Source: Patescibacteria group bacterium
GTDB lineage: Bacteria; Patescibacteriota; Patescibacteriia; JAHIZJ01
Direction: 5' to 3'
Length of the DNA stretch: 64,000 nucleotides
NCBI GenBank assembly: GCA_041650335.1
Contig: JBAZLK010000003.1
Coordinates: forward strand, 57,765 to 121,764
Shown: positions 3,841-58,248 of the stretch, in pieces
How the letters are laid out: every line of letters starts with the position of its first letter
Numbering within the stretch: the first letter of the stretch is position 1
Position numbers and translations under genes: made by a program
The notes under the pieces: generated by a model
The model's input: only the letters and a program-made list of their open reading frames with translations
Databases searched by the model: none
What the model was told of the DNA's origin: nothing

Positions 3841-4110
3841 TTAATGCTTGAGTTTTAACTTCTTGATGAGGTTTTGATAGCTCTCGGCGTTCTCTTTTTC
3901 GAGATAGCGGAGCAGGCGGCGGCGTTGGCCGACCTTGCGGAGCAGGCCGCGCCGGGAAGAAAAATCCTTTTTATGATCGCGCAGGTGATCGGTGAGCTGC
4001 TGGATTTCCTCGGTCAAAATGGCGATCTGTACCTCGGACGAACCGGTATCGGTTTCGTGCGTTTTAAACTTTTTGATGAGCTCTTCTTTTTTTTGCTTGT
4101 CGATAGCCAT
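3841..4110 (-). CDS. rpsO: 30S ribosomal protein S15
   Basis: 89 aa; [49 protein letters not shown] is the canonical S15 sequence. Position upstream of pnp is the expected gene order. Confidence 0.9.
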
Positions 4111-11238: not shown

Positions 11239-11889
11239 GTGGCCGTGGAAAAGACACAAAAACGGTATCTTTCACATGTCGAGTTTCTCCGGCTGGCTGA
11301 CAAGGTAGCGGTCATGCTCCGCCGGCGAAGGTTTGACCACTGCCTGCTTGTTTCCCGCGGAGGACTCTCGCCGGGAGGGTACTTGGCCAAGTGCGTGCCG
11401 TTCTACGACATCTTGGTCGCTTCCATCATGTGGTACAAGAAGGGGCGCAAACTCGCACGGCCGGTCATACTCCAGTTTCCGCCCGAGACCCTGCTCAACG
11501 GCCGTCGCATCCTGATCATTGATGACGTGTGGGATAGCGGCGATACGCTCGATCTTGTCCTGCACATGTGCGTCCGGGCCGGAGCCAAGGTCAGAATTGC
11601 CACCCTTCACTACAAACCCAGGAAGTCCACGCATCCAGGTCGGCCTGATTTCTTCGCCGAGGAAACGGAGGAGTGGATTGTCTATCCCTGGGAGGTGGTT
11701 TGGACAGTCCACATCGAGAAATCAGGCGTGAGACGAGGGACGTTCGTTCATGAATTCGACTGCAAGCCGAGAGCGGGCAAAAAAGTCGTTTTCGACCGGC
11801 CGCCCCACAGGAAGACAGTTGCGCGCACATTCGTTTTCACCAGCGTTGATTTCGATACGCATGTCGCGGTTCTTTCTCCGGTTTCATGA
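11239..11889 (+). CDS. gpt: xanthine-guanine phosphoribosyltransferase-like PRTase with a ~60-aa C-terminal extension
   Basis: VSRGGLSPGGYLA, the PRPP loop RILIIDDVWDSGDTL and the terminal WIVYPWE align with E. coli Gpt (VSRGGLVPG / IVIDDLVDTGGT / WIEQPWD). GTG start 5 nt after AAGGGGG, downstream of a TTGCAA-17-TACAAT promoter. The upstream part of the supplied ORF (from 11083) overlaps tRNA-His and is rejected. Confidence 0.7.
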   Translation: MAVEKTQKRYLSHVEFLRLADKVAVMLRRRRFDHCLLVSRGGLSPGGYLAKCVPFYDILVASIMWYKKGRKLARPVILQFPPETLLNGRRILIIDDVWDSGDTLDLVLHMCVRAGAKVRIATLHYKPRKSTHPGRPDFFAEETEEWIVYPWEVVWTVHIEKSGVRRGTFVHEFDCKPRAGKKVVFDRPPHRKTVARTFVFTSVDFDTHVAVLSPVS

Positions 11890-12005
11890 TCCCAGCGGTC
11901 ATCAAGCTGGGTCAATCTGAGCATGACGGCCCGCCGGACTTCTGTGCGGAGGAGACGAACGGCTGGATCGTCTATCCTTGGGAATTGCGGGAACATCAGT
12001 CGTAA
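11886..12005 (+). pseudogene. relic 3' end of a second gpt-like gene (40-codon frame overlapping the gpt stop as ATGA)
   Basis: Translates to MIPAVIKLGQSEHDGPPDFCAEETNGWIVYPWELREHQS*. PDFCAEETNGWIVYPWE parallels PDFFAEETEEWIVYPWE of the gene above. The nucleotide copies differ mostly at synonymous positions. Confidence 0.4.
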
Positions 12006-12565
12006 AGGAGGAAACGCGGTATGAAATCGCCCTGGAAAGTATTTATCGAGCGCAAAGGCGTCAACCGGTGTACATTCGACCATGTCTTCGAACCGGATCC
12101 GGTCGCCGGCGGCTAGATCAACTTCGACCAGCCCCCGCTTCTCGACCAGCCGGTTGGCCAGTACGAGATCCTGATGGTCGATAGCGTCCTCCGCATGGTG
12201 ATCATCAGGCCGAAGGATGACCTGGCTCATTGACGGTACCACCCATCCACCATGGGTGGCTTTTTTGTGGGAGCAAAGAAAAAGCCCGCCGTTTTTCAAA
12301 CGACGGACGGCTCGGCCTCGCCCAGGATATCAACGGTGATTTCCTTGCGAGAACCCGTGTTCACAATGCCGACGACGCGACAGCTGTATCGCTGCCAACC
12401 GCCGGCCTTAAGCCGAAAGTTGAGAATCTGCGTTTCGTCCCCACGCGGCGCATGACAGAACTCAGCCGTGGTTTGGCTCTCAGCCAATAGTTCGGAACCG
12501 GCTTGAACGTGCACTGCCCAGAGCGCGCTCATGGACACACCTCCTTCTCCGGCTGAAGACCGCAC
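11990..12565 (-). pseudogene. MOSC-domain protein gene disrupted by a frameshift near 12296-12300, with a degenerate 3' end
   Basis: Frame 1 (12565..12296) ends ...ITVDILGEAEPSVV*. Frame 2 (12299 downward) continues THGGWVV...DLVLANRLVEKRGLVEVDLAAGDRIRFEDMVECTPV, resembling the YiiM/MOSC core (HGG...GENLTL...CIGDRLRIG...EVTQP). Beyond about 12000 the frame runs antisense through the gpt relic. Confidence 0.4.
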
Positions 12566-12729
12566 GTCAACTCTCGCTCCCCGTCAACACAGCCCATCTT
12601 CTTATATTGTAGCACGATATTGCCATGAACATAATACGCTCATGAAAGCGACTGGACATTGTCTGAATAGCGGCATTATATTATGATGAATAGGAGAGGG
12701 TTTTCCTTTGTCAGAGCCGATTTACATCC

Positions 12730-13323
12730 ATGCGACGCACCGATACATATCGCCATAGCGGTTTTACTTTGATCGAGCTTTTAATTGTCATTGCCATCAT
12801 CGGCTTGATTACCAGTCTGGCGTTAATTTCCCTGCGTGGCGCGCAACAGAAAGCACGAGATACAAAGCGCCTCTATGATTTAAAAATGGTCAGAGAAGCG
12901 CTGGCGCTTTTTGAATCAGATAAAGGCCATAGCCTCACTCCGTGGCTAGACTTTCCTCAACAAATCGACTATTTCCTAGATGGATTTGGCGTCTTAGACG
13001 TTTCGTCAGAATGCGCTCTGAACCCAAGTGATTATTGTTTCCTGCCAATATTGAGAGAGTATTTTAAAACAGACGTTCCGGTCGATCCAATCAATAACAG
13101 CACATATCAATACGGCTATCTTTTTGACGATAACGGCTGTGTTTGCGCCAGGCCGGGCCAGCCCGGTTGTGATCCAGAACGGGCTAAAATGACGTACCTA
13201 TACGCTTCCCGTCTAGAAAAAACAACTACCGATCACGGCGAAGATCCGCAGTGCGCGGGTGGAGACGGCGCGCGTCTTAACGATGCCTATCAGAACGGCT
13301 TTGTCATCGTGGTCCGGCTCTAG
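12730..13323 (+). CDS. type IV pilin-like protein (prepilin with class III signal peptide)
   Basis: MRRTDTYRHSG|FTLIELLIVIAIIGLITSLAL is a basic leader, G-1, F+1, E+5 and a hydrophobic helix, which is a PilD substrate signature. The C-terminal Cys pair could form a disulfide loop. Confidence 0.8.
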   Translation: MRRTDTYRHSGFTLIELLIVIAIIGLITSLALISLRGAQQKARDTKRLYDLKMVREALALFESDKGHSLTPWLDFPQQIDYFLDGFGVLDVSSECALNPSDYCFLPILREYFKTDVPVDPINNSTYQYGYLFDDNGCVCARPGQPGCDPERAKMTYLYASRLEKTTTDHGEDPQCAGGDGARLNDAYQNGFVIVVRL

Positions 13324-38019: not shown

Positions 38020-39992
38020 CTGCAGCGCCAGCCAAACAGAAAAAAACGCCTCAACGGCGGTGGTTGTGGGTAACCCTGGCCGTCGTTTTTATAATTATTA
38101 TTGGTCTCGCCGGCCTACTCGCCTATCAAGTCTCAGCCTATCGCGACAGCGTAATCCCGGGCGTTCGGCTGGCTGGACGCGCTCAGGCTGGACTGATGAG
38201 CCGCCTGAGCCAATCAAGTCTTGAGTCGCTCCTCGCCACCTACCAACGAGACATTGACGACCAGGGCTTTATGTTCGAATTTCAGACGCGAAAGGCAAAT
38301 CTCCCTTCGCTCGTCCAGTCGACGGTCGATCCAGATCTTTCCCAGCAGCTTTTTTCGGTAGACATCACCGCGACGAAAGACGCCGTCTGGAGCTATGGCC
38401 ACCACGCCTCATTTGGGCGCAATGCGCAGGATGTTATCCGGGCGTTCTTTATCGGGATTGATGTCCCGGTGCGATACTCGCTTAATCGAGACGGTGTGAA
38501 GAAAGTCCTGCAGGAGAATTTTAAAGAATACGATAATCCAGCGACAAATCCGAAAATAACCGTTCAGTCAAACGGGACGATTTCCGTCACTCCGGAACAA
38601 TCCGGCGAAACGCTCGATTACGATCAAGCCCTGTCTGAATTGTCCGCTCAGATCGAAACGCTCGATAATGAGACAATCACGCTAAAAAAAATATACGACC
38701 AGCCGACGATCACTGTCGATGAAATTTCGTCGGCCCGAACCGACCTTACCGCCCTGATAAAAACGCTGCCCTGGACGCTCAGCTACGAAGACAAGCGTTG
38801 GGCGATTACCGTGGCCGAGGTAACGCATTGGTTCCGCTTCAGCCGTCGCGACGATGGCTCAGTCACCTTCGATTTCGATCCTGCGGGCGTGGCCCAATTC
38901 CTTGATGCGACTCCCGGACCAATTCTCAACGTCGAGGCGAAAGAAGGGAAGTTCAAAATCGACAACGGCCGCGTGACGGAATTCCAAGTTAGCACGCCCG
39001 GCCAACACATTGACCTAGACAAGACGGTTGCCAATCTCAATGAGGCGATGATCATAAACGGCGCCACGGAGAGCCCGATTGCCATTCAGACCACGGAACC
39101 GCAATCAAAAGAAACGGATGTTAATGAGCTCGGCATTACGGAATTGGTGGCCGAAGGACGAACCGATTTCAGAGGCAGCCCGGCGAACCGGGTGCATAAT
39201 ATCACCGTCGGCGCCGAGACGCTCAACGGTCTCGTCATTAAGCCGGGCGAGGAATTTTCATTAATCAAAGCGCTCGGAAAAATCGACGCCTCAACCGGCT
39301 ACAAGAGCGAGCTGGTCATCAAGGGAAATAAAACAGTGCCGGAATACGGCGGCGGTCTCTGCCAAATTGGCACGACCTTTTTCCGGCTCGTTTTAAATAC
39401 CGGCCTGCCGGTTCTCGAACGGCAAAACCATTCCTACCGCGTCTCGTATTACGAACCGCCGGTTGGAAAAGACGCCACCATTTACGATCCCAAGCCGGAT
39501 TTTCGCTTCACCAACGACTATGATCATCACTTGCTTTTACAGACCCGGATTGAGGGCACGCAATTGATTTTTGAGTTCTATGGCACCAAGGACGCGCGGA
39601 CAATCGAACAGACCGATCCAAAAGTTTATAATTACGTCAGCCCTGGTCCGACGAAGATGGTTGAAACTGAAGATCTGGCCCCGGGCGAGAAAAAATGCAC
39701 CGAAAAAGCCCACACCGGCGCTGACGCGGAATTCACCTATACCGTCACGTATCCGAATGGGGAGGTTAAACCAACTGTCTTTAAATCACACTATAAAGCG
39801 TGGCCAGCCGTTTGTCTGGTTGGAAAACAGCCTAGCGCGCCTGAAACACCGCCGGTCGAACCGCCTGTCACCAATACGAACACAAACACCAACCTAAATG
39901 CCAACGTGAACACGAATTCTAACGCCAATACAAATACAACAACCAACACGAACACGAATAGCAACGCTAACGTTAACGCAGAAACCCCGTAA
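38016..39992 (+). CDS. VanW family protein with C-terminal Asn/Thr-rich tail
   Basis: N-terminal TM helix. VanW core GGGLCQIGTTFFRLVLNTGLPVLERQNHSYRVSYYEP...GKDATIYDPKPDFRFTNDYDHHLLLQT. The last 40 aa are an NTNTNTNLNANVNTNSNANTNTTTNTNTNSNANVNA tail. Confidence 0.8.
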   Translation: MTAAPAKQKKTPQRRWLWVTLAVVFIIIIGLAGLLAYQVSAYRDSVIPGVRLAGRAQAGLMSRLSQSSLESLLATYQRDIDDQGFMFEFQTRKANLPSLVQSTVDPDLSQQLFSVDITATKDAVWSYGHHASFGRNAQDVIRAFFIGIDVPVRYSLNRDGVKKVLQENFKEYDNPATNPKITVQSNGTISVTPEQSGETLDYDQALSELSAQIETLDNETITLKKIYDQPTITVDEISSARTDLTALIKTLPWTLSYEDKRWAITVAEVTHWFRFSRRDDGSVTFDFDPAGVAQFLDATPGPILNVEAKEGKFKIDNGRVTEFQVSTPGQHIDLDKTVANLNEAMIINGATESPIAIQTTEPQSKETDVNELGITELVAEGRTDFRGSPANRVHNITVGAETLNGLVIKPGEEFSLIKALGKIDASTGYKSELVIKGNKTVPEYGGGLCQIGTTFFRLVLNTGLPVLERQNHSYRVSYYEPPVGKDATIYDPKPDFRFTNDYDHHLLLQTRIEGTQLIFEFYGTKDARTIEQTDPKVYNYVSPGPTKMVETEDLAPGEKKCTEKAHTGADAEFTYTVTYPNGEVKPTVFKSHYKAWPAVCLVGKQPSAPETPPVEPPVTNTNTNTNLNANVNTNSNANTNTTTNTNTNSNANVNAETP

Positions 39993-40030
39993 TACGACGC
40001 CGTCACAAGATTTATCCCCAGGGGGGACTC

Positions 40031-40059
40031 TTGACGGTGTTTTTTAGTTACGATAGAAT
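40031..40059 (+). promoter_or_regulatory. sigma70-like promoter (TTGACG-17-TAGAAT). The -35 hexamer lies within the VanW terminator stem.
   Basis: Spacer is exactly 17 nt and the -10 is TAGAAT. No CDS follows for ~900 nt. Confidence 0.4.
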
Positions 40060-40065
40060 GCTTTT

Positions 40066-40378
40066 CATGTGCCCACATTCGGGCGAGAGTGGCGCAGCGG
40101 GGATCTCGCCCACCGTTCTGAGGGTTTCGGCTCTCCGCGGTGGATCGAGATCCCCCTCCCACTTACATTGCACCTTCTTCTCGCAAGGTATAGATAATGG
40201 GGTGAGGCCTCCCCTACACGTTTCTACGTGTACCGGTGGCCGAACGCATGCAACACTGACACCAGGAAGGTCATCCGAACCATGGAAGGTTCTCACCCCA
40301 GCTACCCCCGCCGCGCGCCATCACGTTTCCCCTTGTTGTACCCCGACACGTGATGGTCGCGCGGTTTTTCATTTACTT
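40066..40378 (+). ncRNA. candidate structured ncRNA 1 (unassigned family), ~310 nt, ending in a strong intrinsic terminator
   Basis: GC-rich, no credible ORF on either strand. Long helices such as ggggatctcgcccaccg...cggtggatcgagatcccc, acacgtttctacgtgt and gaaccatggaaggttc. 3' hairpin ccgcgcgccatcacg/cgtgatggtcgcgcgg + T5 (40311..40370). Confidence 0.35.
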
Positions 40379-40389
40379 GACAATACGCA

Positions 40390-40672
40390 AAAAGAAATGA
40401 TACGATTCGCCCGTCCACGGCAACCAAAACACGGAGGTGCGTCGTGACCAGACGGAACAACCGTCCCCCAAGATGCAGCGCCGGGCATCCACCAACAACG
40501 ATGGAAGCCGAGGCCTCATCGAAACACAAGACGGTTTACCGCTGCCCCGGATGCGGACAAACCACAACGGTCCACACCGAAAAGGGCAGGGTCGTCCAAC
40601 CCGCCTACTGATCATTCTCCCAGTCCGAAAGATTGTGCCCCGTCTCGCCCATGCGCCGAGACGGTTTTTGTA
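40390..40672 (+). ncRNA. candidate structured ncRNA 2 (unassigned family), ~280 nt, with its own promoter-like element and terminator
   Basis: TTGACA at 40377..40382 right after the first terminator, with a weak -10 (TACGAT). GC-rich untranslatable body. Terminator ccgtctcg-cccatgcgc-cgagacgg + T5 at 40640..40672. Confidence 0.3.
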
Positions 40673-40974
40673 TATTTTTCCACCTTTACTTTTTTTGCCA
40701 ACACCCTACAATACAAAACAGCTGATCGAGTACCTGCAGTCAAGAGAATTTTCCTGAGGAGATAGAAAAGGTGAAACACCTGTTCTAGCCTCAGAAAAAC
40801 CCCCATGCTTTTCGTGACTGCAGATACCTGACCAGCTGAATAAATTCAATATCGAGACTAATCTTCAATTCTCGATTTTTTCGAGAACGCGCTATCTTAT
40901 CACACCTAAAAAATCTTGTCAAGACCCCTCAAAAGGTGGTACACTGAGGTGACTTATCTTCTCTAATAAAGCAT

Positions 40975-41955
40975 ATGACGATCAAAAACATCTATGACCT
41001 GGCAGTTCGTCTCGGCATTGCCAATGATCTCCGCGGCCAAAAAGCGGTCGTAAAAAAGCTCAATAAAGAACGGGCAAAATATGAAGCGCTCCGCGGCGAT
41101 GACCGGAAGGAATTTGACATCGAACGATTGACCAATCCTTTTTCTGATACGCGCATTTACTACGGCAATCCAGAGCTACCGGTCCGACGCGTCCTGGCCG
41201 GGATCGATATCGAAGCGGCCGAAATACTCATGGCCAAAGAGCTGAGCCGGCAGAAACCCATTGACTTGATTATTTCGCACCATCCGATCGGCGTCGGTTT
41301 GGCCGGTCTGGACGAGGTGATGCAGATGCAAGCGGAAATTTACGCTCTCTACGGCGTTCCGATCAATATCGGTGAATCATTGCAGCGCAAGCGAATCAGC
41401 GAAGTGGCGCGTTCGATCTCGGCCGAGAATCACAACAAGACCGTCGACGCCGCCCGGCTGATGAATATGCCGTTAATGTCAATGCATACGGCGACGGATA
41501 ATCTGGTCGCAAAATTCCTTGATACGCTCATCAGACGACAACGCCAAACATTGGACACCGTTGACGATGTCATGAAGCTCTTAAAAACGATACCGGAATA
41601 CGCCGCGGCCATGCGCCTAAAAGCCGGCCCGAAACTCTTCGCCGGACACCTGGATCACTCCCTTGGGAAAATTGCCCTCTCGGAAGTGACGGGCGGTACC
41701 TCGGGCGCGAAAGAAATTTTCGCGGAACTCTCACGCGCCGGCGTGGGAACAATTGTCGGCATGCACATGTCCGAAGAACACAAAAACGAAGCGGAGAAAA
41801 ACCATCTCAACGTCATCATCGCCGGACATATTTCATCCGATTCGATTGGCTTGAATCTGTACCTCGATGAACTTGAGAAAAAAGGTATCGAGATCATTCC
41901 CTGCGGCGGTTTGATCCGCGTCAGCCGTCTTAAAAAAGTTCAGTCTAAAAAATAG
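40975..41955 (+). CDS. Nif3/YqfO family (DUF34) dinuclear metal centre protein
   Basis: DLIISHHPIG (HHP motif) ... TIVGMHMSEEH ... IIAGHISSDS. Bipartite NIF3 fold with a central insert. Confidence 0.55.
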   Translation: MTIKNIYDLAVRLGIANDLRGQKAVVKKLNKERAKYEALRGDDRKEFDIERLTNPFSDTRIYYGNPELPVRRVLAGIDIEAAEILMAKELSRQKPIDLIISHHPIGVGLAGLDEVMQMQAEIYALYGVPINIGESLQRKRISEVARSISAENHNKTVDAARLMNMPLMSMHTATDNLVAKFLDTLIRRQRQTLDTVDDVMKLLKTIPEYAAAMRLKAGPKLFAGHLDHSLGKIALSEVTGGTSGAKEIFAELSRAGVGTIVGMHMSEEHKNEAEKNHLNVIIAGHISSDSIGLNLYLDELEKKGIEIIPCGGLIRVSRLKKVQSKK

Positions 41956-43541: not shown

Positions 43542-44561
43542 ATGAAGCTTTCGTTGTTTGACTATCGCCTTCCGAAATCATGCATCGCTCAAAAACCCGT
43601 CCGGCCGCGCGATCACTCGCGGCTTCTGGTGTTGAACCGGAAAACGAAAACAATCGAACACCGGCATTTTTATGATCTGGCTGAATACCTAAAACCCGGT
43701 GACGTGCTCGTGCTGAACAATTCAAAGGTATTTCCGGCTCGTTTGATCGGCCGGAAACCGACCGGTGGCAAAATTGAAGTTTTTTTATTGCACCAAGAAA
43801 ATCCGAACACCTGGTCTTGTTTGCTTGGCGGCAAAGGGCGACGGGTTGGATTAACCATCACTGTAGGCGGACAAGCGCTTGTCCGCCTACGAGGCATAAT
43901 AACAAAAGCCCTGCCTGACAACACCTGGCGCATTCGCTTCAACCAAGCCGGCCAAAAACTCATAGCCGCCATCAATGATCTTGGTCAAGCGCCCACCCCG
44001 CCGTATATCAAACGCGCCTCGAATCTGAAAGAATACCAGACGGTCTACGCCGACAAGCCCGGCTCAGTGGCCGCGCCAACCGCCGGGTTTCACTTTACAA
44101 AACCATTACTAAACAAACTGCGGAAACGAGGCGTCCACGCCGAGTTTATAACCTTGCACGTCGGCCTGGGCACATTCCAGCCGGTAAAATTTAACGACAT
44201 AGAAAAACACCGGATGCACCCGGAATTTGTCGAGGTTGACAAAGCCGTCCATCAGCGGCTAGTGAAAGCAAAAAAAGAAGGCCGGCGCATTATCGCGGTC
44301 GGCACCACGACGGTCCGGACACTCGAAACCTTGCCGAAAAAACCCGCCACCTCACGACGCTGGATAAATACGTTCATCTACCCAGGTTACAAATTCAAGA
44401 TGGTCGACGGCTTGGTGACGAATTTTCATTTGCCAAAATCGACCCTTCTTATGCTTGTTTCGGCCTTTGCCGGACGGACGCTCATACTCAAGGCGTATAC
44501 ACGGGCCATACAAAAGGGATATCGGTTCTATTCCTTCGGCGACGCCATGCTGATATTATAA
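43542..44561 (+). CDS. queA: S-adenosylmethionine:tRNA ribosyltransferase-isomerase QueA
   Basis: MKLSLFDYRLPKSCIAQKP.RPRD.SRLLVL...GDVLVLNNSKVFPARL...GFHFT are typical QueA blocks. 339 aa. Confidence 0.9.
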   Translation: MKLSLFDYRLPKSCIAQKPVRPRDHSRLLVLNRKTKTIEHRHFYDLAEYLKPGDVLVLNNSKVFPARLIGRKPTGGKIEVFLLHQENPNTWSCLLGGKGRRVGLTITVGGQALVRLRGIITKALPDNTWRIRFNQAGQKLIAAINDLGQAPTPPYIKRASNLKEYQTVYADKPGSVAAPTAGFHFTKPLLNKLRKRGVHAEFITLHVGLGTFQPVKFNDIEKHRMHPEFVEVDKAVHQRLVKAKKEGRRIIAVGTTTVRTLETLPKKPATSRRWINTFIYPGYKFKMVDGLVTNFHLPKSTLLMLVSAFAGRTLILKAYTRAIQKGYRFYSFGDAMLIL

Positions 44562-48618: not shown

Positions 48619-49742
48619 AAAATGTTCTGATTTTGAAATTCCCTTACTCCTCTCAATACGGCGGCGGCGAACGCCACACTGTGTTACTCGTCGAACAATT
48701 GCAGAAATTGGACGTGCATTTTTTTCTCGTCTCGTCTTGTCCCGTGCTCCTGGCTGAATTCAGCCGGCGGCGTTGGCCAACGCAGAAACTCTGGCTGCCG
48801 CGAGAGCCGGTTTCAAAGATCGCCCTGCTGTTGTTTCCGCTCTGGGCGTGGCTGGCCTTTTTCATCCTGATCGGCGTACTCGTCCGCGCCCGTTTTACTC
48901 AGGGTGTTCGAACCGTTTACTGCCTCTCCCTGACGGAAAAAATACTTGCCACCATTCCAGCCCGGCTCCTCGGGCTGAGGGTCATCTGGGCTGAACACGT
49001 CGGCTTTCACCGTTGGCTGACGAAAAATCCGCTGCGATATTTCTATCGTCTGTTTTCAAAATTCGCCACGATTGTCGTGATCTCACAGGCGCTCCAGCAT
49101 CAGCTTGTCGACCTGGGCGTGGCCAAGAAAAACATCACGGTTATCTATAACGGCTTTGACTTCCCGTATTTTACCGGTCTCTGCCAACCAGCCGCCGGCC
49201 AGAAACCGGATCAATATGTGGTCGGGACATTGTGTCGGCTGGAAAAAGAAAAGGGCGTTGAGGTGTTATTGCTCGCCTGCCAAAAAGCGATTGAGATAAT
49301 CCCGTATTTACGGCTCATTATTGTCGGTGAGGGCGGCGAACGCAAGCGCCTCGAGTGGCTGGCGAAAAATCTGAGCCTTGATCGGCGTGTTCAATTCGTC
49401 GGCTTCCAGCAAGAACCGGCGCTCTGGCTCAGGGATTTTGACGTGTTCGTGCTTCCGTCGGTGAAGCGCGAGTCGTTCGGCGCGTCGCTGGTTGAGGCGC
49501 TGGCTTTGGAACGGCCCGTGGTGGCCTCAAACCTCGAGGGCATCCCAGAAATTGTCAAACAGAATGAAACCGGCCTGCTGGTCCAGCCGGGCAATTCCGA
49601 GGAGCTGGCCCAAGCGCTCATCTACCTGTATCAACACCCGGAAACAGCGCGCCAATTGGCTCAGCGCGGCCGGCAGTATGTTGAAGGTCAATTTACAGTC
49701 GAACGCATGATCAGTGCTTTTTTCCGATTGTTCAGCGAATAA
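48615..49742 (+). CDS. glycosyltransferase family 4 (GT-B)
   Basis: Start overlaps the upstream stop (ATGA). C-terminal EGIPEIVKQNETGLLVQPGNSEELAQAL is the GT4 E-x7-E nucleotide-sugar binding motif. Confidence 0.8.
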   Translation: MKNVLILKFPYSSQYGGGERHTVLLVEQLQKLDVHFFLVSSCPVLLAEFSRRRWPTQKLWLPREPVSKIALLLFPLWAWLAFFILIGVLVRARFTQGVRTVYCLSLTEKILATIPARLLGLRVIWAEHVGFHRWLTKNPLRYFYRLFSKFATIVVISQALQHQLVDLGVAKKNITVIYNGFDFPYFTGLCQPAAGQKPDQYVVGTLCRLEKEKGVEVLLLACQKAIEIIPYLRLIIVGEGGERKRLEWLAKNLSLDRRVQFVGFQQEPALWLRDFDVFVLPSVKRESFGASLVEALALERPVVASNLEGIPEIVKQNETGLLVQPGNSEELAQALIYLYQHPETARQLAQRGRQYVEGQFTVERMISAFFRLFSE

Positions 49743-56806: not shown

Positions 56807-57143
56807 GAGGTTCCTCCTTCTCCGTGGACATTCATGGCCATGAGCGCATCGTGACAACAACCGCCCATACTAGCATATTTCCGTGAATTGTCAAGGTGGC
56901 TATCTGAAGCGCCGTTTCAAAAAATGCGATAAAAAAGCGCCCCTATAAATACGTTTATACCACTGTCATCCCGAACTTGTTTCGGGATCTCACTGCTGCA
57001 CTATGGAGATACTGAAACAAGTTCAGTATGACAATTAGAAAACGGCGCTTTCCGGCAAAGCCGGACTTTTCTGTTACCTTTCTTTTTAAAAGGAAGGTAA
57101 CAAAGGACTTGTAAATTCACCCATCCTGAATTACGATGAGTAT

Positions 57144-58140: not shown

Positions 58141-58248
58141 ACGTTACGAAGAAAACTTTGGCAATATAATTAAGTAAGCGGACAAGCCTTGCCCCGTCGA
58201 ATGACGGGAGCTTGTCCGCCTACTTTTTATTGTATTTTGTTGTCGTCG

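Follow-up and report, generated by a model that had tools for sequence, protein, structure and literature searches.

What is encoded between the gene for a VanW/PG_binding_4 protein and nif3 in a Patescibacteria group bacterium? We addressed this question in a 64,000-nucleotide (nt) stretch of the assembly GCA_041650335.1 (contig JBAZLK010000003.1, positions 57,765 to 121,764), which is called the window below and whose own numbering is used throughout. The gap between the two genes extends from 39993 to 40975, the upstream gene stopping at 39992 and NIF3 starting at 40975. A first-pass annotation had described it as a GC-rich stretch in a window of otherwise tiny intergenic spaces, devoid of any credible open reading frame (ORF) and holding two tandem promoter-to-terminator units, both candidate structured non-coding RNAs. 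This observation was partly confirmed and its interpretation partly supported. The gap holds three transcription units: one candidate ~300-nt structured RNA (U1), one overlooked small protein gene (U2) and, on the minus strand at 40700-40925, one well-supported new small-RNA family (U3) that had escaped the earlier reader. With a probability of about 0.7, we consider that these are three autonomous small genes, compactly clustered in a variable interval reaching from the VanW-like gene to nif3-ruvB-queH-queA.

The signals that had delimited units 1 and 2 were indeed present, i.e., the promoter and the long terminator hairpin with T5 of the former, and the TTGACA promoter start and the ccgtctcg/cgagacgg + T5 terminator of the latter (Table 1), and the region contained 7 promoter-like sites, compared with 1.5 ± 1.3 in shuffled sequences. 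The high G+C content held for units 1 and 2 (59.6% and 59.8%, for 52.7% in the window) and not for the last 300 nt (40%). For comparative purposes, we used a sister genome (L002), whose NIF3 is 97% identical to the window protein, and more distant loci, with NIF3 identities of 82% (L005), 78% (L174), 71% (L175) and 69% (L176/L177). The nearest public genomes with this gene order are metagenome-assembled genomes (MAGs) labelled Patescibacteria. On a Logan contig encoding an identical NIF3 protein and matching the region at 100%, the gap carried no gene calls.

U3 is the best-supported RNA in the gap, and sequence comparisons provide good support for its assignment to a new family. Its hairpin is an inverted repeat that is near-identical in L002 and that was still recognised by blastn in L005 and L003. 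A covariance model located it at 14 distinct Patescibacteria loci, and at no other of the ~180 related loci. When 11 distinct sequences were aligned with MAFFT, double changes were seen in 24 of the 37 pairs, and none of 500 shuffles reached any of the five measures. The proportion of paired cells was 94.6%, as compared with 39-52% in controls with slid partners. The 5' stem of L175 differed on both sides (GUUCUCUG/CAGAGAAC) and its pairing was kept; the tip of the long hairpin varied among loci, both in sequence and in loop size.

Our first model of U3 was built on the plus strand and was dropped after strand tests based on minimum free energy (MFE), pairing, promoter and U-tract. The minus strand folded better by 1-19 kcal/mol in 9 out of 9 loci, with 4-10 G.U pairs versus 0-5, and the CCCCC and AAGAA runs of the plus strand correspond to a GGGGG/UUCUU wobble helix on the minus strand. 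Over the whole alignment, paired cells amounted to only 80.3% on the plus strand, and G.U cells numbered 65 on the minus strand versus 7 on the plus strand. A minus-strand promoter of the form CTTGACAAG-N12-TGnTAAGAT, followed by GTTC, was invariant in every aligned locus and also in L174-L176 and L179 (the GTT of GTTC being invariant in alignment A7); promoter and GTTC start region were present at every Patescibacteria locus examined by eye or by alignment, which covered 12 of the 14. The hairpin was followed by a U-run in 9 of 12 aligned loci (alignment A11), an A-run preceding it on the plus strand. A plus-strand reading of the hairpin, whether a small RNA or a riboswitch-like nif3 leader, would be in keeping with its distance from nif3 (137-183 nt upstream at most loci) and, in the window, with a flanking weak promoter-like TTTACT-16-TACAAT and a flanking terminator-like hairpin. 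This latter hairpin is, however, found only in the window and L002, the plus-strand flanks are unalignable among loci, a conserved nif3 promoter lies between the hairpin and the gene, other genes intervene in L008 and L179, and the copies found in phage-like contigs (see below) are co-directional with genes in the minus-strand sense. With the figures for pairing and MFE, this leaves the plus-strand reading with hardly any credit, and a riboswitch or leader of nif3 was rejected. The minus-strand promoter was also kept where a GNAT gene (L008) or a gene for a 185-amino-acid (aa) protein (L179) separates U3 from nif3, which indicates that U3 is an autonomous gene.

Two short ORFs overlapping U3 were rejected. 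On the plus strand (40805-40831), a conserved CATG opens an 8-codon frame, M-L-(F/V)-V-(T/S)-(A/T)-(D/E)-x-stop, in 6 of 8 loci, and this frame was observed at the same place in L003, L005, L007, L083 and L090; covarying changes in the U3 helix translate into conservative residue changes in it. As it has no Shine-Dalgarno sequence (SD) and no conserved length, we regard it as a probable side effect of the conserved RNA. The conserved CATG also opens a 64-aa ORF on the minus strand, which likewise lacks an SD and a conserved length (17 aa in L005). We also noted in L083 (304-387 and 529-542) a second, partial U3 core (GTGGACACGACAAGCCCCG) beside the full copy, within the inferred 5' region.

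Alternatively, the U3 hairpin might work as folded single-stranded DNA, at a site of recombination or replication; attC sites and single-strand origins contain imperfect, bulged hairpins in which G.T pairs are tolerated. The variable cargo found beside it and its copies in phage-like contigs would fit with this. We nevertheless find this explanation scarcely plausible, as a consensus promoter and the GTTC start travel with the hairpin, a U-tract follows it, and no integrase or Rep gene is adjacent to it in the window.

Further copies of the U3 core were obtained by scanning IMG/VR with exact patterns and then with the covariance model. Three different phage-like contigs contained it (L169=L172, L189 and L186), with a G+C content of 44-66% near the motif and with unrelated genes, namely ParB, PAPS-reductase and YqaJ in L169=L172, Rad52, GroES and GroEL in L189, and DUF7695 in L186. 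In all three, the core was co-directional with the flanking genes, and helix P2 covaried. This brought to 16 the number of distinct sequences that could be placed in register. All had a 9-10-base-pair (bp) helix of variable sequence that was always paired, the bulge CGA(A/C)AAGCAU, identical except for one A/C position (the three phage-like contigs included), and a helix starting with GGG, with an apical hairpin of 37-48 nt and the closing sequence UCUUG. The nucleotides flanking the bulge, CA and GG in CACGAMAAGCAUGG, were invariant as well.

An unpaired invariant decamer beside an invariant G.U run suggests a specific docking site, and the most likely role of U3 is that of a platform for specific binding. 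In the mechanism that we propose, U3 would be transcribed leftward from its near-consensus promoter, with a stem-loop at its 5' end, then a rod-like hairpin and finally a U-tract; the bulge and the G.U-rich helix would be the docking site, for a protein more probably than for an mRNA. Duplex predictions for U1 and U3 against the region of the U2 ribosome-binding site, the nif3 leader and each other gave nothing better than shuffles (z ≥ 0). A search of the window and of the loci for complements of the U3 bulge retrieved the locus itself and a site with 3 mismatches at the U1 promoter/start (40056-40069). A 12-mer located there (ATGCTTTTCATG, 40058-40069) matches the plus-strand copy of the U3 bulge (ATGCTTTTCGTG, 40805-40816), and U3 could thus pair with 9 nt of this site, which lies mostly upstream of the presumed start of U1. 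Since the phage copies are found in unrelated contexts and no complementary targets lie nearby, a protein or a common factor appears likelier than an mRNA seed. As a rough estimate, we would give a protein or factor somewhat less than half of the weight, base-pairing slightly less than a third, and a cis-acting, aptamer-like element about a fifth.

A mainly cis-acting U3 (an attenuator, an element governing processing or stability, or an orphan riboswitch) rather than a small RNA acting in trans has to be considered, because ORFs on the same strand follow the motif in L179 and L180 and in each of the three phage-like contigs. An invariant bulge between covarying helices is, furthermore, the usual appearance of an aptamer for a ligand or a protein. 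In the window, L002, L005, L174-L176 and L090, on the other hand, U3 is followed by no same-strand coding sequence and runs, with its U-tract end, into convergent genes, and the genes downstream of it differ in every case. A role mainly in cis is unlikely in our opinion.

The U3 promoter stands back-to-back with that of nif3. Both share one palindromic -35 element, TCTTGTCAAGA, and consist of a TTGTCA-17/18-TACACT-like promoter for nif3 and a TTGACA-17-TAAGAT-like promoter for the minus strand. This arrangement was seen in the window (40898-40945), L005 (~3905-3965), L003 (~3915-3970), L179 (~2420-2470) and L174-L176, and the nif3 promoter itself is conserved in L005, L003, L174, L175, L176 and L179. 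In L179, the minus-strand partner drives the gene for the 185-aa protein and not a small RNA. The sharing of the -35 would couple the two initiations: one RNA polymerase bound to it would exclude the other, and U3 and nif3 would be started in a mutually exclusive manner on any given template.

U1 is plausibly a structured non-coding RNA, judging from its sequence. The long helices reported for unit 1 were borne out by an MFE of -137 kcal/mol with a z-score of -6.65, none of 100 shuffles folding as well. Comparison with L002 disclosed 24 substitutions, together with indels of 3, 2, 1 and 1 nt that disrupt the long frames, and none of the 89 consensus pairs was lost. With the structure predicted from the window sequence alone, 8 substitutions fell in paired columns, compared with 14.7 expected (P=0.004), and 4 pairs were broken, compared with 9.5 expected (P=0.0125). 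The 3' hairpin stem was unchanged, and one compensatory pair was found. The divergence of U1 (7.7%) is ~4 times slower than that of the synonymous sites of NIF3 (proportion of synonymous differences, pS, 0.25; dS, 0.31).

Counterparts of U1 occupy the same place in L175 and L176/L177. They measure 366 and 397 nt, fold with z-scores of -10.1 and -5.2, and share the box TTATCCCCA, a promoter of the form TTGAC-17/18-TAGAMT (found in L175, L176 and L177) and an RNA start ..ACGUGCCCA in the mini-hairpin. The order of their parts is that of the window: mini-hairpin, 70-90-nt rod, closed multibranch domain, long 3' hairpin and terminator, L175 and L176 both having a 70-90-nt hairpin in the place of H1 and a closed multibranch domain analogous to H2. 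Promoter, 5' end and terminator are conserved in four genomes. Outside the 5' end, the three lineages have nothing but GUGCCCA in common (RNA position 10 in the window, L175 and L176), to which the window and L176 add the H1 tip UUCGGCU (alignment A9). The body sequence is not conserved beyond the window/L002 pair, and the distant counterparts are unalignable; no other copy of U1 was detected by blastn, nor a second one in the window. The retention of helices, promoter and 5' end, and not of sequence, suggests an action that depends on shape. U1 would be transcribed rightward from a sigma-70-type promoter up to the long hairpin with U5, and may act through its shape, not through a conserved active site, as a scaffold, a decoy or a substrate for a double-stranded-RNA enzyme (RNase III).

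Is U1 a functional RNA at all? Decayed coding sequence, which had been raised at the outset as an alternative, or palindromic repeats behind a promoter would explain why its body is conserved only in a close pair, why its presence is patchy, why its stems are long and near-perfect, as in repeat elements, and why the content of the VanW-NIF3 interval is variable. Against this stand the slow divergence and the sparing of the stems, the conservation of promoter, 5' end and terminator, the lack of a second copy in the window or of any copy in phage and plasmid collections, and the absence of a protein-family match in Pfam for its ORFs, so that we deem a functionless U1 distinctly unlikely. Among the five largest ORFs of the gap (138, 106, 82, 80 and 55 aa), the only Pfam matches were sub-threshold ones to zinc fingers, with the 55-aa ORF. 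The 138-aa ORF (40031-40447) was discarded because its frame is broken by indels in L002. We also rejected a miniature inverted-repeat transposable element or other non-autonomous transposon: the 27-nt inverted repeat 40029-55/40898-924 consists of two promoters of a common architecture, those of U1 and U3, each of which is conserved in genomes without the other, and it has no second copy in the window.

Unit 2 is, on sequence criteria, a small mRNA with a promoter, an SD, 55 codons and a terminator, and its reading as a non-coding RNA is not supported. The statement that no credible ORF exists was indeed contradicted by an ORF starting with GTG at 40444, the frame of which is conserved in the sister genome and the stop of which lies 30 nt ahead of the terminator. 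This ORF is the most diverged segment of the gap between the window and L002, with 48 differences over 168 nt (29%), yet it contains no indel, while the flanking untranslated parts do. Half of the differences (24 of 48) are at third positions, and dN/dS amounts to 0.24 in frame compared with 1.62 and 0.80 in the other two frames. The fold is weak (z -2.06). That units 1 and 2 both represent structured non-coding RNAs, maybe divergent housekeeping RNAs, had been suggested by the promoter and terminator of each and would be in line with the strong structure of U1. The weak fold, the substitution pattern, the SD and the conserved frame of U2, the absence of any Rfam or ARAGORN hit (see below) and the fact that both units are missing from close relatives, a poor fit to housekeeping RNAs, make it very unlikely. 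As a structured RNA candidate, unit 1 stood, on account of its fold, promoter and counterparts, and unit 2 fell.

The product of U2 is probably a lineage-specific, fast-evolving, zinc-ribbon-like protein with a predicted metal site. It would be a basic protein with one C-x3-H...C-P-x-C module, inserted between U1 and U3 in the window/L002 lineage only. Four Cys/His ligands in two knuckles (C11, H15, C35 and C38; alignment columns printed C11, H15, C34, C37) are kept in L002. HMMER searches of 1.8 billion protein representatives gave 5 matches, all through a repeated Cys/His module, among them P0001 (E 3.9e-13) and P0005 (E 8.5e-4). P9, C11, G14, H15, M20, C34, P35 and C37 are invariant between the U2 protein and the two modules of P0005 (112 aa). 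In P0001 (3842 aa), P0002, P0003 and P0004 (680 aa), we observed many tandem copies of a U2-type YRCPxC...GRV...CGH module; the C-terminal half of P0004 is taken up by some seven 47-aa repeats that are nearly identical. A word-indexed protein search with the 55-aa sequence retrieved nothing. The single-sequence AlphaFold2 model is weak, with a predicted local distance difference test score (pLDDT) of 65; it has three short strands, as expected of a zinc ribbon, and it matched no PDB structure with E<1 in Foldseek. The closest known relatives in kind are the small zinc-ribbon/zinc-finger proteins (HVO_2753_ZBP, DUF7560), which the U2 protein resembles by its size of ~55 aa, its basic character and its knuckles C11/H15 and C35/C38. 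It differs from them in that its first knuckle is C-x3-H rather than C-x2-C and that its relatives are repeat modules in larger proteins. The score with HVO_2753_ZBP (PF07754) was 18.9 bits, below the cut-off of 33.2, as were all Pfam matches below theirs.

Could U1 or U3 belong to a known class? We scanned the 4227 families of Rfam 15, at gathering score on the window and 16 related loci and at relaxed thresholds (E≤10 or E≤1) on the region, L174-L176, the phage-like loci and the window gap 11850-12780. The hits consisted solely of tRNAs and of chance matches to miRNA- or snoRNA-type families. Neither units 1 and 2, even at E≤10, nor U3 and its related loci gave a match above chance, and ARAGORN found no gene in 39800-41100. 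These results do not support the proposal that the units are divergent forms of RNase P RNA, transfer-messenger RNA (tmRNA), signal recognition particle (SRP) RNA or 6S RNA. The loose reminder of RNase P in unit 1, AGGAAGGTCATCC, is present at 40264-40276. This segment (AGGAAGGUCAUCC) sits in an internal loop of H2, and bacterial RNase P RNA (GGAAAGUCC..., ACAGAA...) was rejected because no model matched 39900-41050 at gathering score or E≤10, nor L174-L176. tmRNA was dismissed on the ARAGORN and Rfam results, and bacterial SRP (4.5S) RNA on the absence of an Rfam match and on the variable U3 tip. 6S RNA deserves closer comparison: U3 is similarly rod-like (150-200 nt), probably abundant and conserved in structure more than in sequence, this last feature being also the mode of evolution of U1. 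The two-sided, large central bubble and the paired 5' and 3' ends of 6S RNA contrast with the one-sided 10-nt bulge of U3, opposite a single U, and its free 5' stem-loop; U1 is multi-domain and not a rod; and the 6S models gave no match. Membership of this family was consequently rejected.

In Y RNA and YrlA, the Ro-binding stem has a basal helix ...GUC-C-GA... paired to ...UU-GAC..., with a U-tail. U3 has AGUCA-CGA.../...UCU-UGACU and a U-tract, a likeness that we mention as a lead. Its bulge has 10 nt, not a single C, no tRNA-like domain was found, no Y_RNA or YrlA appeared in the Rfam scans, and there was no TROVE domain among the annotated flanking genes. U3 resembles the orphan structured small-RNA motifs of the Rfam kind, with which it shares a promoter, a covarying scaffold, few invariant unpaired nucleotides, a terminator-like end and a distribution restricted to a lineage; the difference is that neither U3 nor any of its relatives matched a model of Rfam 15 above chance, even at relaxed thresholds. 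As to U1 and its counterparts, they recall OLE, GOLLD, ROOL and raiA by their size (305-400 nt), their z-scores (down to -10.1), their intergenic position and their own promoter. The latter RNAs, unlike U1, have many invariant nucleotides and Rfam models, U1 sharing only 7 nt with its counterparts outside the promoter and matching none of these families. A type III toxin-antitoxin system (ToxIN-like) was rejected, as U1 has no tandem repeats and U2 has its own promoter (a toxin match was sought only in Pfam), and a retron msr-msd was rejected because no reverse transcriptase is present, the neighbours being VanW, NIF3, RuvB, QueH and QueA; both analogies fail for want of these features. By the usual marks of a stand-alone bacterial small RNA, U1 and U3 both appear to have their own promoter, in the form of consensus matches conserved across genomes, and a terminator-like 3' end. 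Covariation is clear for U3, and weak for U1 (the one compensatory pair, and stem-sparing substitutions).

Several points weigh against the existence of three autonomous genes. The ends of all three transcripts were placed from consensus matches. For U3, there are the same-strand ORFs downstream of the motif, which make a role in cis possible, and no convincing complementary target was found nearby by duplex prediction or bulge-site search. U1 is absent from L005 and L174, which are nearer by NIF3 than genomes that have it; this patchy presence marks it as dispensable and accessory. The conservation of its structure is based on one close pair and on unalignable counterparts, and its strand is not decided by MFE alone, the assignment depending on the conserved promoter and the T-runs. 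Moreover, a U1 ORF (40069-40197, 42/43 aa) that has no SD is maintained in L002, where its 3-nt indel keeps the frame, and might conceivably yield a peptide. U2 has no full-length homologue, either by word-indexed search or by HMMER, and its pS (0.55) exceeds that of NIF3.

Table 1. Features of the VanW-NIF3 gap in window coordinates, and content of the corresponding slot in relatives in the coordinates of each locus
Feature	Position	Strand	Remarks
U1 upstream box TTATCCCCA	40012..40020	+	Invariant in window, L002, L175, L176, L177
U1 promoter TTGACG-17-TAGAAT	40031..40059	+	Hexamers kept in L002 despite spacer change
U1 RNA, ~305 nt	40066..40370	+	5' end placed from -10, 3' end from terminator
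U1 5' mini-hairpin	40070..40085	+	Carries GUGCCCA
U1 hairpin H1, 78-nt rod	40087..40164	+	10-bp perfect helix GGGGAUCUCG/CGAGAUCCCC, UUCG-type tip
U1 multibranch domain H2	40198..40300	+	Contains AGGAAGGUCAUCC
U1 3' hairpin + U5, intrinsic-terminator-like	40310..40370	+	17-bp stem, 20-nt C-rich loop
U2 promoter TTGACA-18-TACGAT, TG extension	40377..40406	+	L002: -35 identical, -10 TAGGAT
U2 Shine-Dalgarno GGAGG	40433..40437	+	6 nt before GTG; kept in L002
U2 ORF, 55 aa, basic, MTRRNNRPPRCSAGH...YRCPGCG...	40444..40611	+	Zinc-ribbon-like
U2 intrinsic-terminator-like hairpin + U5	40640..40672	+	L002: loop and innermost stem pair changed
U3 U-tract UUUUGUAUUGU	40708..40718	-	Directly 3' of hairpin
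U3 RNA, ~180 nt	40708..40888	-	Ends inferred
U3 hairpin, 120 nt (P1-P2, bulge, P3-P4)	40719..40838	-	Covariation
U3 bulge, 10 nt, CGAAAAGCAU (CGACAAGCAU in most relatives)	40805..40814	-	Between P2 and G.U-rich helix GGGGG/UUCUC
U3 5' stem-loop GUUCUCGA-AAAAA-UCGAGAAU	40868..40888	-	Plus strand resembles terminator
U3 promoter TTGACA-17-TAAGAT, extended -10	40894..40922	-	-35 invariant, TGnTAnnnT in 8/8 aligned loci (A7)
NIF3 promoter TTGTCA-18-TACACT	40916..40945	+	-35 is the palindrome TCTTGTCAAGA common to the back-to-back U3 promoter
Slot content: other promoter-to-terminator units	L003 3088-3700
Slot content: unrelated short sequence	L005 3480-3737
Slot content: 256-aa ORF	L007 2889-3659
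Slot content: GNAT acetyltransferase	L008 3198-3884
Slot content: minus-strand genes	L179 777-2358; L180 1828-2118	-

The VanW-NIF3 interval behaves as a variable slot in relatives, with the conserved hairpin RNA always alongside (Table 1). The 658-aa VanW/PG_binding_4 protein lies upstream of it, and NIF3, RuvB, QueH and QueA are encoded downstream. At its end, the VanW-like protein has a tail of low complexity, rich in Asn/Thr (TNTNLNANVNTNSNANTN...), coded by imperfect repeats of 18-24 nt at 39880-39990. Some MAG records, among which L002, L004, L008 and L009, are titled 'uncultured Gammaproteobacteria' or 'Saccharibacteria'; they look mislabelled, as their NIF3 proteins and gene order are typical of Patescibacteria relatives. 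Phage and plasmid collections searched by blastn with the region gave nothing real. In a scan of JGI metagenomes with NIF3, the closest relative was no better than 60%, so that no additional copies of U1 or U2 came from there.

Intergenic space in the rest of the window is roughly as tiny as had been stated, the two largest other gaps flagged by a crude scan for ORF-poor regions having turned out to hold genes. The first, 48619-49713, is a glycosyltransferase gene on inspection. The second, 11890-12729 (840 nt), is not empty and contains two probable small minus-strand genes, one of which has GGAGG-N7-ATG at about 12533; a relaxed Rfam search of 11850-12780 gave no real match. We also observed a perfect palindrome, GTAGGCGGACAAGC|GCTTGTCCGCCTAC, that occurs twice, at distant sites (43863-43890 and 58172-58225); it may be a terminator common to both or a small repeat element. 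Finally, a hairpin with 28-nt arms that are 86% complementary (56964-57033, within a 283-nt ORF-poor gap) may be a further small RNA or a terminator; a second one, with 15-nt arms, lies in the same area at 57072-57102.

Patescibacteria (the candidate phyla radiation, CPR) are largely uncultured, and we found nothing relevant to a non-coding RNA of this kind in the literature on their structured and 6S RNAs; the 13-mer core of U3 was likewise absent from the searchable literature. U3 provides a family that is backed by covariation, has an exact signature at the sequence level and is described by a working covariance model; it can be searched for in metagenomes and metatranscriptomes. The locus also calls for caution on two counts: what looks like a promoter-to-terminator unit of raised G+C may turn out to be a small protein gene missed by gene callers, and the strand that encodes a hairpin RNA may not be the obvious one. 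The -35 shared with nif3 suggests a simple switch in which a small RNA competes with a DNA-repair/queuosine gene cluster. The most interesting possibility, which we put forward tentatively and as a joint proposal, is that we are dealing with two new classes: U1-type RNAs of 300-400 nt, selected only for long helices, and a U3 core that would be a widespread binding module common to the chromosomes of Patescibacteria and to unrelated phages. If this is true, U1-type RNAs could be, for example, decoys or scaffolds of double-stranded RNA in episymbiotic bacteria, and the invariant pocket of the U3 core would be the binding site of a specific ligand or of a universal cellular factor. This partner is worth finding, since the core is also present in phage-like contigs and its binder may be exploited by viruses.

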